Source: an uncultured archaeon | GTDB lineage: Archaea > Asgardarchaeota > Thorarchaeia > Thorarchaeales > Thorarchaeaceae | Direction: 5' to 3' | DNA: 32,000 bases | NCBI GenBank assembly: GCA_964648855.1 | Contig: CAZYLT010000005.1 | Span: 1 to 32,000 of the forward strand | Shown here: positions 2,840-9,310 of the stretch, in pieces | How positions within the stretch are numbered: position 1 is the stretch's first letter | Layout of the letters: each line of letters begins with the position of its first letter | Program-made: the position numbers and the translations under genes | Notes under the pieces: generated by a model | The model's database searches: none | Told to the model about the DNA's origin: nothing | Seen by the model: the letters and a program-made list of their open reading frames with translations, nothing else

Positions 2840-3490
2840 ATGGGTTTCTTAAGTGGTAAGAAGAAGGTTGATGCAGAACGTGGTATCTTAGAAATAAAGG
2901 GCAGTATGAATGCCTTGACTCTGAGGATACGACGCTTAGAAACCAGAATGGCCGAAGAGCGGAAGAAGGCCAAGGACGCTATGGAAAATGGCAACCGCTC
3001 TGGCGCTCGTTCTCATCTATCTATTGTAGTTGACTTAGAGAATAGAAGAAACCGCTATCAACAACAATTTCTAACATTGGAGACAGCACTTCTAAATCTT
3101 GAAGAAGCCAAAGACCAAGCTGAGGTTCTCCGTGCCTTCAAAATTGCAAATCAGGCCCTTCAGTCTGCAAGAAAGATGCTAAGTCCGACTGAAATACAAC
3201 AGCAACTGGACAAGCTGTCCGATTCCTTTGAGCATATCTCGATTGCAGGTGAACTGTTGTCAGAAGATATCTCAACATCTGGGACTTCGCTCGAATCTGA
3301 TGAGCGGATCGAGAAACAACTTGAGGAGATGGAGGCAGAGGTTCTTCTAGAGAAAGAAGGCGTTTTACCCCCGTTAGAAGAGCAAAAAGAGAAATCAGAA
3401 AGGGAAAAGGTAACCGAAGAGAAAAGAATCGATGAATTGCTAGCTAATCTCGAAGAAGAAGCCAAGAAAGAGCGAGAAGCCGAGAGCTGA
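2840..3490 (+). CDS. ESCRT-III subunit, Snf7 (Vps20/32/60-like) family
   Basis: N-terminal MGFLSGKKK anchor-like segment; basic helical hairpin (AKDAMENGNRSGARSHL...), LE.A....EVL.A...AN.AL pattern, acidic C-terminal half with LPP motif and terminal helix. Confidence 0.85.
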   Translation: MGFLSGKKKVDAERGILEIKGSMNALTLRIRRLETRMAEERKKAKDAMENGNRSGARSHLSIVVDLENRRNRYQQQFLTLETALLNLEEAKDQAEVLRAFKIANQALQSARKMLSPTEIQQQLDKLSDSFEHISIAGELLSEDISTSGTSLESDERIEKQLEEMEAEVLLEKEGVLPPLEEQKEKSEREKVTEEKRIDELLANLEEEAKKEREAES

Positions 3491-4209: not shown

Positions 4210-5361
4210 TCAAGTATATCGCATACCGGAGCCAGTATTCAACACGACAATTTCTTCATCATAGTCCACAATACTACTCTCAACCAAGTTCCTCAGCCCT
4301 GAAAACCCTACAGCGGCTTCCGGACATATGTCAATTCCTTCAATTCTAGGGACTAGTCTCAGCATTGGTTTAATCTCTGCCTCAGCTACTGCAACTGCTC
4401 CGCCGTTCGACTCCTTGATAATCCTCATTATCAGTCTATCTGCAAAAGGGGATGGAACTCTCAGTCCGAAGGCAGAGGTTTTTGCGTCAGTCCATGGTTC
4501 TATGTTCCCCGAATTCTTTTCATATGCCCTTACTATCGGTGCACAACCTTCACTTTGTGCAGCAAATATTCGTGGTGTCTTGCGTTCGATCAATCCGACT
4601 TGCTTCAATTCCTCAATACCTTTCCATATTCCAAGCATTGCTGTCCCTCCACCAGTAGGGCAAACAATGACATCCGGCATATTCCAATCCAACTGTTCTC
4701 CAATCTCAAATGCTAGTGTCTTTTTCCCTTCCACACGGAACGGCTCTTTGGTAGTGGAGAGATTTGTCCAATCCTCTCCAGCCCTTGCCATCGCCTCTCC
4801 ACAATCTGAAATATTGCCATCGATTTCGTGAATTTTCCCTCCATACATCTTACACCCTTCAAAGAAAGGCTTAGGCGTGTCCTTTGGTAGGAAGATATCT
4901 GTTTCTGCATTTCCTGCTGCGGAGTATGCACATGCCGAAACTGCTGCGTTTCCAGCTGAAGGCAACGCGAATTTTGTGGATCCAAGCTCTAGATGTTTTG
5001 ATATTGCAACAGACATACCCCTGTCTTTGAAACTAAGTGTTGGATTTCTAGCCTCGTCTTTGATTCTAAGATTCTGAAGCCCCAGATGCTTTCCAAGTCT
5101 ATTTGCAAACAAGAGAGGTGTCCAGCCTTCTCCTAAGCTGGTTATGCTTGACGGTGATCCAACAGGAAGTAAATCAGCATACCGCCACAAAGAGTTCTCA
5201 TTGGATGGAAACTGATCAGCCTGAGCAGCTTCTACAACCAGTTTCATGTTATATCTTGCAAAAAGAGGTGACCCACATACGCAATATGAAACATCTCTCC
5301 GTATGGAATGATTTCTACCACATGCGGGACATTCAAGATGAGTCAGTCGTGTAAACACCAA
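4210..5361 (-). CDS. thrC: Threonine synthase (PLP fold II)
   Basis: N-terminal CxxC..CxC, LGEGWTPL, NPTLSFKDRG (PLP Lys), SAGNA, EGKKT, PTGGG, NTGSG. Confidence 0.88.
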   Translation of the reverse strand: MVFTRLTHLECPACGRNHSIRRDVSYCVCGSPLFARYNMKLVVEAAQADQFPSNENSLWRYADLLPVGSPSSITSLGEGWTPLLFANRLGKHLGLQNLRIKDEARNPTLSFKDRGMSVAISKHLELGSTKFALPSAGNAAVSACAYSAAGNAETDIFLPKDTPKPFFEGCKMYGGKIHEIDGNISDCGEAMARAGEDWTNLSTTKEPFRVEGKKTLAFEIGEQLDWNMPDVIVCPTGGGTAMLGIWKGIEELKQVGLIERKTPRIFAAQSEGCAPIVRAYEKNSGNIEPWTDAKTSAFGLRVPSPFADRLIMRIIKESNGGAVAVAEAEIKPMLRLVPRIEGIDICPEAAVGFSGLRNLVESSIVDYDEEIVVLNTGSGMRYT

Positions 5362-5411
5362 ATAACCCCATCTTTACTTCTATCCTCAGTGTTATATGTG
5401 TCTGTGCTTTT

Positions 5412-6626
5412 TTGAATTTGGAGGCATTAGAACTGGAAACCGGTGAAAGGGTGGTCTTACCATTCACTGCATTGGTTGGCCTAGAGCGCCTGAAGTTGGC
5501 CCTATTGTTAAATGGGGTCAATCCAAGGATTGGTGGCGTTCTGGTTTCCGGTCCTAAGGGGACAGGAAAAACTACTATCGTCAGGGCATTTGCCGACCTT
5601 CTACCTGAGGTGGAAGTGGTGCAGGGTTGTCGTTTCGGCTGCAATCCGAACAATCGTGATGCGCTCTGCGCTGAATGCCGCGCACGATCGGAGAGTGGCG
5701 AGGAATTAGAAACCACAACGCGGAAGATGAGGGTAGTGAATCTCCCTCTATCGACTACAGAAGACCGCCTTGTGGGTTCGCTTGATATCGAAAAAGTCTT
5801 ACAGGAGGGAATTCAAGCTCTAAAACCTGGAATTCTCGCGGAAGCACATCAAAACGTTCTGTATGTTGATGAAGTAAATCTTCTTCCTGACCACCTAGTT
5901 GATGACCTTCTTGATGCAGCGGCCACAAAGGTGAATGTGATAGAACGTGAAGGCATCTCAATCTCACATGCTTCTGATTTTGTTCTAATGGGGTCGATGA
6001 ATCCCGAAGAGGGAGAATTGCGTCCTCAGCTTCTAGATAGATTTCCTCTTCATGTATCAGTTGGAGGAAACCATAGTATTGGAGAGCGAATGGAACTGGT
6101 AAGACGAAATCTGGCGTTTGAAAAAGACCCTGATGCCTTTTCAAAGAGATGGTCAGAAGAGCAAAACAAGTTAAGAAACAAAATTATTCAGGCAAGAGGA
6201 CTACTGGACTCGATATTCTTACCTGATGCCAAATTAAGAGCCATTGCAATGGCCTGCGATGCATTAGAAGTAGACGGTGTTCGTCCAGATATCATTATCA
6301 GCAAAGCTGCAATTTCCTTGGCAGCATTTTATGGGAGAGAAGAAGTAAGTCTTGAGGACATGAAATTAGCCTCTCAGCTGGCACTAAGCCATCGTACCAG
6401 ACGTGGTGGTCTCTTAGAACCACCTTCAGCTTCAGAGATTGACGAATCCATATCGAGGGCGCATGCAGTCGCCAAGAAAACGGGCAAGAGAAAATCACCT
6501 ACAGAAATGACTGAGGAATCAGAAGACAAATCCGGGCCCAGGATGAGTGGTGGCAAATTCGGTCGTCAGTCAACAGTTGCGGAAACTGATATGGCAAACG
6601 GCAAAAAAAAACTCCGAAGAAAATAA
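5412..6626 (+). CDS. ChlI/BchI-like chelatase AAA+ ATPase (0-frame product; N-terminal part of a frameshifted chlD-like gene)
   Basis: Walker A GPKGTGKT, TEDRLVGSLD, Walker B LYVDEVNLL, MNPEEGELRPQLLDRF, Cys cluster, L.HR.R.; ends 15 nt after an A9 tract. Confidence 0.92.
   Translation: MNLEALELETGERVVLPFTALVGLERLKLALLLNGVNPRIGGVLVSGPKGTGKTTIVRAFADLLPEVEVVQGCRFGCNPNNRDALCAECRARSESGEELETTTRKMRVVNLPLSTTEDRLVGSLDIEKVLQEGIQALKPGILAEAHQNVLYVDEVNLLPDHLVDDLLDAAATKVNVIEREGISISHASDFVLMGSMNPEEGELRPQLLDRFPLHVSVGGNHSIGERMELVRRNLAFEKDPDAFSKRWSEEQNKLRNKIIQARGLLDSIFLPDAKLRAIAMACDALEVDGVRPDIIISKAAISLAAFYGREEVSLEDMKLASQLALSHRTRRGGLLEPPSASEIDESISRAHAVAKKTGKRKSPTEMTEESEDKSGPRMSGGKFGRQSTVAETDMANGKKKLRRK
6603..6611 (+). 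other. Candidate programmed -1 frameshift / transcriptional slippage site (A9; GGC AAA AAA AAA CTC)
   Basis: The -1 frame is open from 6590 (after TGA 6587-6589) to 8086, and the 0 frame ends at TAA 6624-6626. The A9 run sits inside this 37-nt overlap and contains the heptamer A_AAA_AAA. Confidence 0.7.
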
Positions 6627-8086
6627 GAAATCCAAGAGCCAATCCTATCAAAGGAACGATTCTCGCAATAATGATGATAGTAGTTTTCTCATATTTTGCT
6701 TGGGTGGCTTTTAGCCCCATCAATTTCCTGTTTGGGATTTCCCCTGGAACATTTCCCCCCGCTCCATTGATTATCATAAACTCCATTCTATACATCCCTC
6801 TTATTTTCCTCTTGATTCGACGATGGCTTCGAACAATGATGAATAGAAAAGGTGGACCTGCAGCTGGAATTGATACTGTAGAACCCGGCAAGGCAGTGCC
6901 AGAACCCGGCGATGAGTGGGGGACAGCAACGAGACCATATGAGGCAAAAGCGGAGTCTAAGGTCACCGGATCTAAATCTGATATACGTGAAACTCCTCTT
7001 GCACTAGACGATGGATTCTTCGTTAAGACCCCCGATATGGATTCCGGGCAGCCTCTCTTTGATCCTGAGAAGCTAAAGGCTCGAGCGATGGTAAAATCGA
7101 AGGTGTCATCAGGTGGATGGAGTGACAAACGGGTCAGATCAAGAGCCACAGGGAGTCTAAGGGCATCTGAAACCGAGAAACATGGACGCCCAACTAGATC
7201 ACGCAGACCCCACCGCGATCTATCAAACATTCATCTCCCCTCCACATTGTTGGCAGCTGCAATTCGCGAAGGCAAAAATAGAGAGGGTAAAGGCATTTCC
7301 ATTAAGGCTGAAGACATCAGGGAAACCGTATTTACTGGAAAGACTCCTCTGACCGTCATACTCGTTATCGACGTGAGTCTCTCGATGAAGAGAAGCATGT
7401 CAGAAGTTCGCAAATTGGTTGAAAGAATCGAAAGAGAAACAAGGGGCTCAAAGGACCGAGTTGGGATTATTGCCTTCAAAGACAGTGGAGCCATAGAGAT
7501 TCAAGCACCGACAACCAACTGGAATAAGGTCTATCGGTCGCTTGCTAAGCTGCGCATTTCTGGTCTAACACCGCTGGCCGATGGTTTGGTGAAATCACTA
7601 GAAACAATAAAGCGCGAACGAATGAGAAACGACCTAATGGAGCCATTGGTCATAGTCATCTCAGACTTCAATCCGAATATTCCGTTGGCTCAGTCCGCTG
7701 GACCTGGGCATGAAAGATATACACCCATTAGAGACTTGGTGCGCGCTTCACGGATTCTTAGGAAGCAAAAAGTACGAGTTGCGACAGTAAGTGTTGATTA
7801 TGACCAAGCCAATTTCTCAAAATTTCTAAAAAGGCCATTTCACGATGCAATGGAGCTTGCAGCTCTCCTTAGGATGAAAAAAGACGGATATAACGATGTC
7901 ATGGAAACTATTCTATCAGTTCCCGCTTTCCGAAAAACATTCGGTGCGTATATTATTGCACGGGCCAGTGGTGGACACGCCTTTCTCTCCAGGGAACTCA
8001 TTAAAGCTGAATCCGTGATTGGTGCTATTCTAGCTGCAATCGAATCTAAGACAAGAATGAGCGTTACCAATCTTCGTGAGGCATAA
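6611..8086 (+). CDS. ChlD-like linker + vWA (MIDAS) domain with two N-terminal TM helices; -1 frame continuation of the AAA gene (first ATG at 6671)
   Basis: IHLPSTLLAAA..DIRE ChlD linker motif, VIDVSLSM (DxSxS), DRVGIIAF, GLTPLADGL, VISD. Hydrophobic TM1 begins upstream of the first ATG (GTILAI-MMIVVF), and there is no well-spaced SD for ATG 6671. Confidence 0.85.
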   Translation, partial: TPKKIRNPRANPIKGTILAIMMIVVFSYFAWVAFSPINFLFGISPGTFPPAPLIIINSILYIPLIFLLIRRWLRTMMNRKGGPAAGIDTVEPGKAVPEPGDEWGTATRPYEAKAESKVTGSKSDIRETPLALDDGFFVKTPDMDSGQPLFDPEKLKARAMVKSKVSSGGWSDKRVRSRATGSLRASETEKHGRPTRSRRPHRDLSNIHLPSTLLAAAIREGKNREGKGISIKAEDIRETVFTGKTPLTVILVIDVSLSMKRSMSEVRKLVERIERETRGSKDRVGIIAFKDSGAIEIQAPTTNWNKVYRSLAKLRISGLTPLADGLVKSLETIKRERMRNDLMEPLVIVISDFNPNIPLAQSAGPGHERYTPIRDLVRASRILRKQKVRVATVSVDYDQANFSKFLKRPFHDAMELAALLRMKKDGYNDVMETILSVPAFRKTFGAYIIARASGGHAFLSRELIKAESVIGAILAAIESKTRMSVTNLREA

Positions 8087-8299: not shown

Positions 8300-9310
8300 T
8301 TGCTACCAGGGAAAGTACCGCGAGAGGTTCTGGAGAAGCACGTATTCACACATTTAGGAAAGCGCCATCCTGACTTGATCTTAGGCCCTGCAATGGGTCA
8401 AGATGCATCACTAATTCGTATGGGTAATAGAATCATTGTAGCAGCAACGGACCCGATAACAGGCTCAATTGAGGATATTGGGTGGCTAGCTGTGCACGTA
8501 AACGCTAATGATGTAGCAACTTTCGGAGTGCGTCCTACATGGTTTCTGTGTTCCATCATGTTACCTGAAGGAACGGAAGTTCAAGACATTGAGAAAATAA
8601 TGATGCAAATTGATGAAGCAGCTCAAAGTCTTGGAATAGGTGTTGCTGGCGGACATACAGAGATTACCGCAGGATTGAACCGGCCAATCGTTGCTGGATT
8701 CATGATGGGTGTGACTGAAGAAGGGAGGTATGTTACTTCTTCGGGAGCGGAGCCTGGTGATTCGATTATCATGACCAAGTCAATCGCGATAGAAGGAACT
8801 GCTATTCTTGCCACAGAAGGTCATGACATGCTATCAGATACCATCCCCTCAGAAGTGGTCTCTCAAGGAAAGTCCCTAAGAGCGCAAATTAGTGTTGTCC
8901 ATGAAGGAATTGCCGCATTCGAAACCGGTTATGTGACTGCAATGCATGACCCGACGGAGGGCGGCTTAGCTGGCGGATTGCATGAAATTTGTGATGCGAG
9001 TTCAGTGGGTTGTGAAATTGATTACCAATCGATACCTATTGACGATGCAACAAAGGCAATCTGCGAGCTCCTTGAAATTGACCCTTTCAGATTAATTAGT
9101 AGTGGCTGTATGCTGATTACTTGCAAGCAGGACCACACTTCAACCGTCATAGAGAAGATAAAATCTGCTGGAATTGGAGCAACAGCCATTGGCAAGGTGG
9201 TTTCTGATGAGAATAGAAGAGCTTTGATAACGGATGACGGAATACAGGAATTCGAGCATCCGGAAACTGATGAATTATGGGTCGGATTACAGAGAATTTC
9301 TAATCCATGA
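8300..9310 (+). CDS. AIR synthase (PurM/HypE/ThiL)-like ATP-binding protein
   Basis: MxxGK start, G.GQDA, TDPI, VNANDVA..G..P, AGGHTE, GA.PGD, AMHDPTEGG, SSG. Confidence 0.88.
   Translation: MLPGKVPREVLEKHVFTHLGKRHPDLILGPAMGQDASLIRMGNRIIVAATDPITGSIEDIGWLAVHVNANDVATFGVRPTWFLCSIMLPEGTEVQDIEKIMMQIDEAAQSLGIGVAGGHTEITAGLNRPIVAGFMMGVTEEGRYVTSSGAEPGDSIIMTKSIAIEGTAILATEGHDMLSDTIPSEVVSQGKSLRAQISVVHEGIAAFETGYVTAMHDPTEGGLAGGLHEICDASSVGCEIDYQSIPIDDATKAICELLEIDPFRLISSGCMLITCKQDHTSTVIEKIKSAGIGATAIGKVVSDENRRALITDDGIQEFEHPETDELWVGLQRISNP

Follow-up and report, generated by a model that had tools for sequence, protein, structure and literature searches.

A ChlI-type AAA+ ATPase gene and a vWA gene adjoin in different frames in the first 32,000 nucleotides (nt) of contig CAZYLT010000005.1 (assembly GCA_964648855.1, an uncultured archaeon of the Thorarchaeaceae), which are referred to throughout as the window. 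The upstream open reading frame (ORF1) and the downstream one (ORF2, in the -1 frame) meet at a run of nine adenines (A9), which the 0 frame reads as AAA AAA AAA between GGC and CTC CGA AGA AAA TAA. This TAA is the 3' limit for any shift, and the 5' limit is the TGA that closes the -1 frame upstream, after which that frame stays open until a stop at 8084-8086; both frames are open together over 34 nt, and the A9 lies within them. Without a shift the product is 404 amino acids (aa), and with a -1 shift on the A9 it would be 400 + 491 = 891 aa. A first-pass annotation, made from the sequence letters, had read this arrangement as one gene giving two subunits by recoding, and its coordinates for the run, the stops and the frames, as well as the two product sizes, all hold on re-reading the sequence. 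From the comparisons described below, programmed recoding at the A9 of a single chlD-type gene is given a probability of about 0.87. The coordinates of all features are collected in Table 1.

The start of ORF1 is uncertain and lies at TTG 5412 or a few codons downstream, the orthologue alignments starting at residues 4-16. For the -1 frame, orthologue matches begin at residues 2-6 of the stop-to-stop frame, and the earliest ATG, GTG or TTG is found at 6671. This position is within the first hydrophobic helix, which opens at 6656 and thus upstream of the first ATG, as had been proposed. A single ChlI-like gene is present in the genome.

Long homopolymers are scarce in this 3.1-Mb genome, where 7 A/T runs of at least 9 were found and around 42 are expected by base composition. 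The A9 between ORF1 and ORF2 is the only one of these located in a long ORF, the other six being outside long open frames, and together these counts argue against an origin by chance. No other A/T run in the window is as long as 7. The longest homopolymer of the genome is an A24 outside the window (contig C1:160006-160029), which precedes a 554-codon open frame of the minus strand by approximately 16 codons.

The junction was surveyed in 86 species-level genomes of the same family. An orthologue is present in 72 of the 86 and 70 junctions were read, with the register readable in 69, as one is cut at a contig end. The -1 register of the window is seen in 61 loci. Six loci are in frame, and each of these corresponds to a sibling class plus one A (GGC-A10-C vs GGC-A9-C, C-A11-G vs C-A10-G, and G-A10-G vs G-A9-G); two are in the +1 register, one through an A8 and the other through a 1-nt deletion just upstream of an A9. 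The run is 9 nt long in 51 loci, 10 in 13, 11 in 4, 8 in one and 7 in one, and so has 9-11 A's in 68/70. Runs occur in all three codon phases, with the -1 register kept by compensating flanks (A11+GCTC vs A9+CTCC). No AAG is found inside the runs, where 126/126 lysine codons are AAA, compared with 39% AAA among the lysine codons of these genes, and the glycine codon directly before the run varies freely between GGC and GGT. In the A7 locus (G023) the run is broken, and an in-phase CCA AAA AAA TAA heptamer is located 12 nt downstream. The first-pass annotation had proposed a comparison of this kind and its outcome is favourable: across the 70 junctions the orthologues are not consistently in-frame fusions or separate genes.

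Column entropy was determined for the 42 ungapped sequences of the main class. Periodicity follows the 0 frame up to the run, where the glycine is invariant and is preceded by Glu or Asp, and it follows the -1 frame from the first codon past the run. The conserved -1 peptide there reads T-P-x-x-I/V-R-N-P-R-G-D-P-I-K-G-T-I-C-A-I-M-M, with 1.2-1.9 bits of entropy at third positions compared with 0-0.3 bits at the other two codon positions. Stops occur in the -1 frame ahead of the run, and in 9/42 of these loci a TAA overlaps the first two A's, so that in these nine the -1 frame opens only inside the run. Across the 42 loci no ATG, GTG or TTG is conserved in the 20 codons that separate the run from the first conserved Met. 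Since the -1 peptide is conserved, lacks a conserved start and is closed off upstream, independent initiation of ORF2 cannot explain the conservation, and judging from these alignments the frame transition must occur on the A's. In more than 60 genomes both halves are intact and stop-free, and purifying selection acts on them. By comparison of the aligned loci, then, the site, its register and the coding frames can be shown to be under selection.

The same data bear on the possibility that these are two separate genes, in which the vWA protein has a start of its own (ATG 6671 or an unusual codon) and the A-run does no more than encode Lys-Lys-Lys. Public records do list the orthologues as 'AAA family ATPase' and 'VWA domain-containing protein', and the two Met codons at 6671-6676 are conserved, in 37 and 36 of the 42 loci respectively. 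A start at 6671 would however cut the first membrane helix, and the stretch of 20 codons that leads from the run to this ATG in the -1 frame is conserved as protein, varying at third positions and containing no conserved start, in a frame that is closed just upstream of the run or within it. Nor can the coding of lysine explain 126/126 AAA at 39% AAA usage, and natural in-frame fusions of 880-913 aa exist: G012 (893 aa), G083 (913 aa), G101 and G046 (898 aa each) and JGI P0003 (880 aa), with more distant in-frame forms of 852-900 aa. Separate genes are therefore considered very improbable.

Very little weight is likewise given to an artefact or decay, whereby the true sequence would be A10 and the A9 a homopolymer miscall, or the locus a recent pseudogene. 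Homopolymers are prone to error, A8 is seen in one relative (a 20-contig assembly) and a further six relatives are in frame, yet the -1 state is common to 61/69 independent species-level assemblies, of which one is the closed single-contig genome of G041 (A9, -1 register). Moreover, the A9 was reproduced exactly by two separate per-run assemblies, as the Logan assemblies of SRR7048218 and SRR7048227 are both 100% identical to the window over 4,416 nt, A9 included. Decay is further opposed by the two full-length, stop-free halves and the purifying selection on them.

The main remaining rival is phase variation at the DNA level, in which the A-run would be a contingency tract prone to hypermutation. 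The majority of cells would then have A9 and make only the short ATPase, and a minority would have A10 and make the fusion, with no slippage of RNA polymerase or ribosome. Alleles differing by one A (A9/A10 or A10/A11) do occur in close lineages. The G044 bin holds two junction copies that are 94% identical, one with A9 in the -1 register (L038, contig C247) and one with A10 in frame (L076, contig C195), which are probably two strains binned together, and G046 and G059 are 91% identical and differ by one A in the run (-1 vs in frame). Furthermore, of 69 consensus genomes 6 show the in-frame state and 2 the +1 state, and poly-A tracts can also act in replication (PMC3711429). Metagenomes were scanned for same-strain variants of run length with two patterns; the first gave no match and the second gave one further in-frame C-A11 contig. 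Under phase variation, however, the two OFF states should be near equal, yet the -1 and +1 registers stand at 61 to 2. The compensating flanks, which keep the -1 register across different run lengths and phases, argue for selection on that register over family-level divergence (57% protein identity), the downstream 490 codons are intact in every lineage, and the gene is cytoplasmic or membrane housekeeping-like and not a surface antigen. On balance, phase variation is regarded as improbable, though less so than the two alternatives above.

Table 1. Positions of the features at the recoding junction and in the two reading frames, numbered from the first letter of the window.
Feature	Position	Strand	Basis
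ORF1, ChlI-type AAA+ ATPase, 404 aa	5412..6626	+	Matches to TIGR02442, TIGR02030 and PDB 8osf
Walker A, GPKGTGKT	5550..5573	+	Motif search
Cys4 motif in AAA+ module, C-x3-C-x8-C-x2-C	5628..5678	+	Invariant in 18 transmembrane-type homologues
Walker B, VLYVDE	5856..5873	+	Motif search
TGA closing the -1 frame upstream	6587..6589	+	Sequence reading
A9 slippery run, putative recoding site	6603..6611	+	A9-A11 in 68/70 orthologous junctions
-1 frame continuation, 491 codons + stop (basic stretch, transmembrane hairpin, linker, vWA)	6611..8086	+	Frame-specific variation, orthologue matches
TAA, 0-frame stop	6624..6626	+	Sequence reading
Hydrophobic helix 1 (TM1)	6656..6712	+	Kyte-Doolittle 19-residue window, 2.31
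Hydrophobic helix 2 (TM2), then basic stretch RRWLR..RK	6761..6817	+	Kyte-Doolittle window, 2.44
vWA / integrin-I-like domain	7355..7810	+	Pfam VWA_2 and VWA; TIGR02442; PDB BchD 2x31_A
MIDAS motif, DVSLS (DxSxS)	7370..7384	+	Motif search

The two ORFs match successive parts of TIGR02442, the NCBIfam model of a fused ChlI/ChlD-type 'putative cobaltochelatase', ORF1 at model positions 2-355 (E 2.9e-136, 455.5 bits) and ORF2 at positions 382-616 (E 2.9e-33, 115.2 bits), and they are therefore two halves of one ancestral gene. ORF1 also matches the BchI-ChlI model TIGR02030 (E 1.1e-117) and ChlI in the PDB (8osf, E 9.1e-98, residues 10-351), which bears out the description of this half as ChlI-like; it is a full-length ATPase of this type, with Walker A and Walker B both intact. 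ORF2 matches the BchD-ChlD model TIGR02031 (E 1e-21) and the Pfam families VWA_2 (E 2.2e-10) and VWA (E 2.5e-7), and its only sequence match among PDB structures is the integrin-I domain of BchD (2x31_A, E 7e-7). All scores are under the NCBIfam cut-offs, with 455.5 + 115.2 vs 779 bits for TIGR02442, 393 vs 467 for TIGR02030, and 232 and 77 vs 499.6 for TIGR02031.

The region between the AAA+ and vWA domains consists of two hydrophobic helices with basic stretches on both sides, and there is no soluble Pro-rich or acidic linker of the canonical ChlD type. The long product had been described as having the ChlD architecture; this stands for the order AAA-linker-vWA and for the BchD-type vWA domain, but not for the linker, which carries a two-helix membrane hairpin. 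An AlphaFold2 model was made of the natural in-frame orthologue from G012 and not of the 891-aa fusion of the window, to whose proteins that orthologue is 57-75% identical (tblastn). In this model the AAA+ module is confident (1-347), the segment 347-400, where the Lys run falls, is disordered, and a helical hairpin (400-428 and 439-466) is followed by a second disordered linker and a confident vWA domain. A Cys4 motif, C-x3-C-x8-C-x2-C, is invariant in 18 transmembrane (TM)-type ChlD-like proteins of 30-64% identity and absent from the solved ChlI/BchI structures 6l8d, 8osf and 1g8p, and it possibly binds Zn or an Fe-S cluster as a feature peculiar to the TM-type subfamily. In-frame AAA+-TM-vWA proteins make up a broader unnamed group of about 22 representative clusters, whose records are named Thorarchaeota, Promethearchaeota and Bathyarchaeota.

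In the proposed recoding, standard decoding would stop at TAA 6624 and give the 404-aa soluble ChlI-like AAA+ ATPase, and in a fraction of expression events the frame would move by -1 on the A9. This could happen by either of two routes: RNA polymerase would lengthen the run in the transcript by one A (A9 to A10), or a pair of Lys-tRNAs would slip back by one base on A_AAA_AAA. Both would lead to the identical 891-aa protein (...G-K-K-K-T-P...), with the AAA+ module followed by the basic stretch, membrane hairpin, linker and vWA/MIDAS domain. By analogy with ChlI/ChlD and with the published frameshifted chlD genes (fs-chlD), the short and long forms would co-assemble via their shared AAA+ module, and the efficiency of the slip would set both the short:long ratio and the share of the machine that is tethered to the membrane.

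The first-pass annotation considered slippage by the polymerase to be as plausible as ribosomal frameshifting. Both do remain in play and both may contribute, but the features of the junctions lean slightly towards the polymerase, at about 55:45. The run is held at 9 or more in 68/70 loci whatever the codon phase, and a run of at least 9 matches the length of the RNA-DNA hybrid (PMC5009743). Synonymous sites outside the minimal heptamer are fixed as A, as CAA and never CAG is found in 7/7 loci, and only codons ending in A (GGA/GCA/GTA) precede the phase-2 runs. In addition, some lineages with in-frame or +1 alleles are 91-94% identical to lineages with -1 alleles and yet show no decay of the downstream frame, which would be expected if any allele gave transcripts of several lengths.

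No conserved frameshift stimulator, such as a hairpin or pseudoknot 5-9 nt downstream, was found; the 60 nt upstream were tested by folding only, with no scan for elements resembling a Shine-Dalgarno sequence about 10 nt ahead of the run. Conserved RNA structure was also absent, the RNAalifold consensus being empty for 70 mafft-aligned (gapped) and 42 ungapped junctions, and this absence is a further point in favour of the polymerase. The mean fold z-score is -0.88 downstream and +0.09 upstream of the run, and the 60 nt downstream of the run in the window fold with only -4.3 kcal/mol, in agreement with the earlier remark that there is no convincing downstream hairpin. Two hairpins were considered as stimulators, CUCC-GNRA-GGAG directly after the run (in one genus) and CCC-AUCAA-GGG approximately 31 nt downstream, and both were rejected as they are not universal, are at the wrong distance, vary in location and are absent in the window. 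With aragorn, 17 tRNAs only, including one Lys(UUU), were detected in this metagenome-assembled genome, a set too incomplete to use.

Several observations weigh against programmed recoding, or against the polymerase as its agent. The long form is a product predicted from conservation. On the ribosomal side, an in-phase heptamer of the X_XXY_YYZ type is present in every class, the A7 locus included, and is A_AAA_AAA in the window. Because any A9 in any phase holds an in-phase A_AAA_AAA, neither run length nor phase excludes ribosomal frameshifting, and the A7 locus of G023, with its heptamer beside a stop codon, agrees better with ribosomal frameshifting than with polymerase slippage. No literature on programmed transcriptional slippage in archaea was found. 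The alternation of A9 and A10 alleles among lineages 91-94% identical would be produced by phase variation in the DNA as well, and a separate gene for the small subunit is lacking from the in-frame relatives of other families, so that the short form is not obviously required.

As regards the origin of the site, the A-run at this junction is restricted to the family, and it is absent in the nearest TM-type relatives from other families of the phylum (G035, G031 and G033), which are all in frame. Since these nearest outside relatives are in frame without the run, the recoding site seems to have arisen within this family, as the distribution of the sequences suggests. Soluble ChlD-like paralogues elsewhere in the phylum are also in frame and mostly lack an A-run. 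One of them, L087, has an in-frame A9 in an AT-rich linker. In another Asgard family, locus L090 (G029:C23:13000-17000) has soluble ChlD-like AAA+ and vWA matches in different frames approximately 570 nt apart with many stops between them, and this may be a different split or decay.

No match to the CobN/ChlH large subunit (PF02514) was found in this genome, which is 94.6% complete, or in any of the 31 family genomes searched (this genome and 30 relatives), and the same search was positive in five control genomes. The term 'chelatase subunits', as used in the first-pass annotation, is supported by homology to ChlI and ChlD, but without a large subunit in these genomes it is a homology label. 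As no CobN/ChlH partner was found, insertion of metal into porphyrin is disfavoured and the cellular task is probably another one; at a guess, it is an ATP-driven step at the membrane in the manner of MoxR/ChlID, either remodelling or the loading of metal. A more specific reading, which is put forward tentatively and is held to be rather unlikely, is that archaeal RNA-polymerase slippage acts as a localisation switch between a soluble AAA+ protein and a TM-tethered motor with MIDAS. Having a Cys4 site and no porphyrin-binding partner, this machine would serve some other membrane-associated task than tetrapyrrole metalation. If true, no earlier case of conserved programmed transcriptional realignment would be on record for a cellular gene of an archaeon, as far as the searchable literature shows.

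Throughout the family the gene is flanked by thrC, a HypE/ThiL-like gene of the AIR-synthase family, and surE. In the window the AIR-synthase-family gene (8300-9310) is directly downstream on the same strand, and its best NCBIfam matches are HypE (145 bits, cut-off 252) and ThiL, both below cut-off. The neighbours were considered as a hint to function and discarded, as none of them is found beside distant TM-type homologues, and the synteny therefore reflects relatedness only. The threonine synthase gene (4210-5361, minus strand) is divergent from ORF1, leaving a gap of approximately 50 nt (5362-5411). A TTATAT element is located at around 5392-5397, roughly 15-20 nt ahead of the candidate TTG starts, and given this spacing the ORF1 mRNA may be leaderless or short-leadered. 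A Snf7 gene is present at 2840-3490, and this, together with the naming of orthologue records as Candidatus Thorarchaeota, agrees with the host having been called a probable Asgard archaeon.

The locus belongs to the published chlD recoding device and is not a new mechanism. Recoding of archaeal cellular genes is documented in very few cases, however, with reviews naming fucA1 and suggested methanogen chelatase genes, and to these the locus adds a whole Asgard family of approximately 70 species in which the site is held by selection. It also provides a natural series for the question of polymerase or ribosome, with runs of A9, A10 and A11 spread over three codon phases, six alleles that are in frame and the A7 heptamer of a single locus. 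For annotation, a correction is indicated, as the halves are entered in GenBank and IMG as two genes, 'AAA family ATPase / ChlI' and 'VWA / ChlD'. The use of recoding here would go beyond subunit stoichiometry, since only the shifted product gains a (predicted) membrane anchor. Caution is due in metabolic reconstructions of Asgard archaea, where such genes are no evidence of Mg- or Co-chelatase activity because no large subunit was found.

Among known systems, the closest is the fs-chlD cluster. Antonov et al. 2013 (PMC3711429) described a cluster of 23 'magnesium chelatase' fs-genes that shift by -1 on a poly-A stretch; they come from Pseudomonas, Burkholderia, Delftia, Herpetosiphon, Methanocaldococcus and Methanococcus, and E. 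coli reporters gave 63, 40 and 10% frameshifting for 11, 9 and 7 A's. The cluster is also treated in the recoding review of Atkins et al. 2016 (PMC5009743) and by Kuznetsov, Milenkin and Antonov 2022 (PMC9227772), which cites Antonov 2020 (Molecular Biology and Evolution), so the first-pass annotation was correct in taking poly-A frameshifting in chlD genes of bacteria and methanogens as established. Shared with these genes are a ChlI-type AAA+ ORF followed by a linker-vWA ORF in the -1 frame, a poly-A shift site (A_AAA_AAR, 7-11 A's) located where the AAA+ module ends and held by purifying selection, the existence of homologues fused in frame, the annotation of the halves as separate genes in databases, and archaeal members (Methanocaldococcus, Methanococcus). 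Some fs-chlD genomes likewise lack the large subunit and the B12 and chlorophyll pathways ('stage 1'). The Thorarchaeaceae genes differ in the two-helix membrane hairpin of the linker, by which only the shifted product would be membrane-anchored, and in the invariant Cys4 motif of the AAA+ module. They belong to an Asgard clade (Thorarchaeota) that is not named in PMC3711429, PMC5009743 or PMC9227772, their nearest relatives outside the family are in frame without an A-run, and they have no conserved downstream stimulatory structure.

The gamma/tau products of Thermus thermophilus dnaX arise by transcriptional slippage on nine A's (described in PMC3711429 and PMC5009743). In both cases a homopolymer of approximately the RNA-DNA hybrid length (9-10 bp) leads, or here would lead, to a short and a long product sharing an AAA+ N-terminal module, RNA structure is not required, and genomic alleles of different run length are tolerated. 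In dnaX, however, the slip gives the shorter product, whereas here it would give the longer one and the polymerase would be archaeal. In archaea, the alpha-L-fucosidase gene fucA1 of Sulfolobus solfataricus uses a -1 programmed frameshift (PMC8037382, PMC8211752), and it resembles the present gene as an archaeal cellular gene of two ORFs joined by a -1 shift on an A-rich slippery site. It differs in that the site is a heptamer and only the fused protein is functional, whereas in the present family the run is 9-11 nt and both products are plausible subunits.

At the protein level the comparison is with ChlI/ChlD (BchI/BchD) and CobS/CobT. Homology to ChlI extends along the entire AAA+ module, the vWA domain is BchD-like and includes a MIDAS motif, and in those systems too the small and medium subunits share the AAA+ fold. 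The differences are that no ChlH/CobN was found in this genome and its 30 relatives, that the linker is a membrane hairpin, and that the Walker motifs of the long form would be intact, since it shares its AAA+ polypeptide with the short form.

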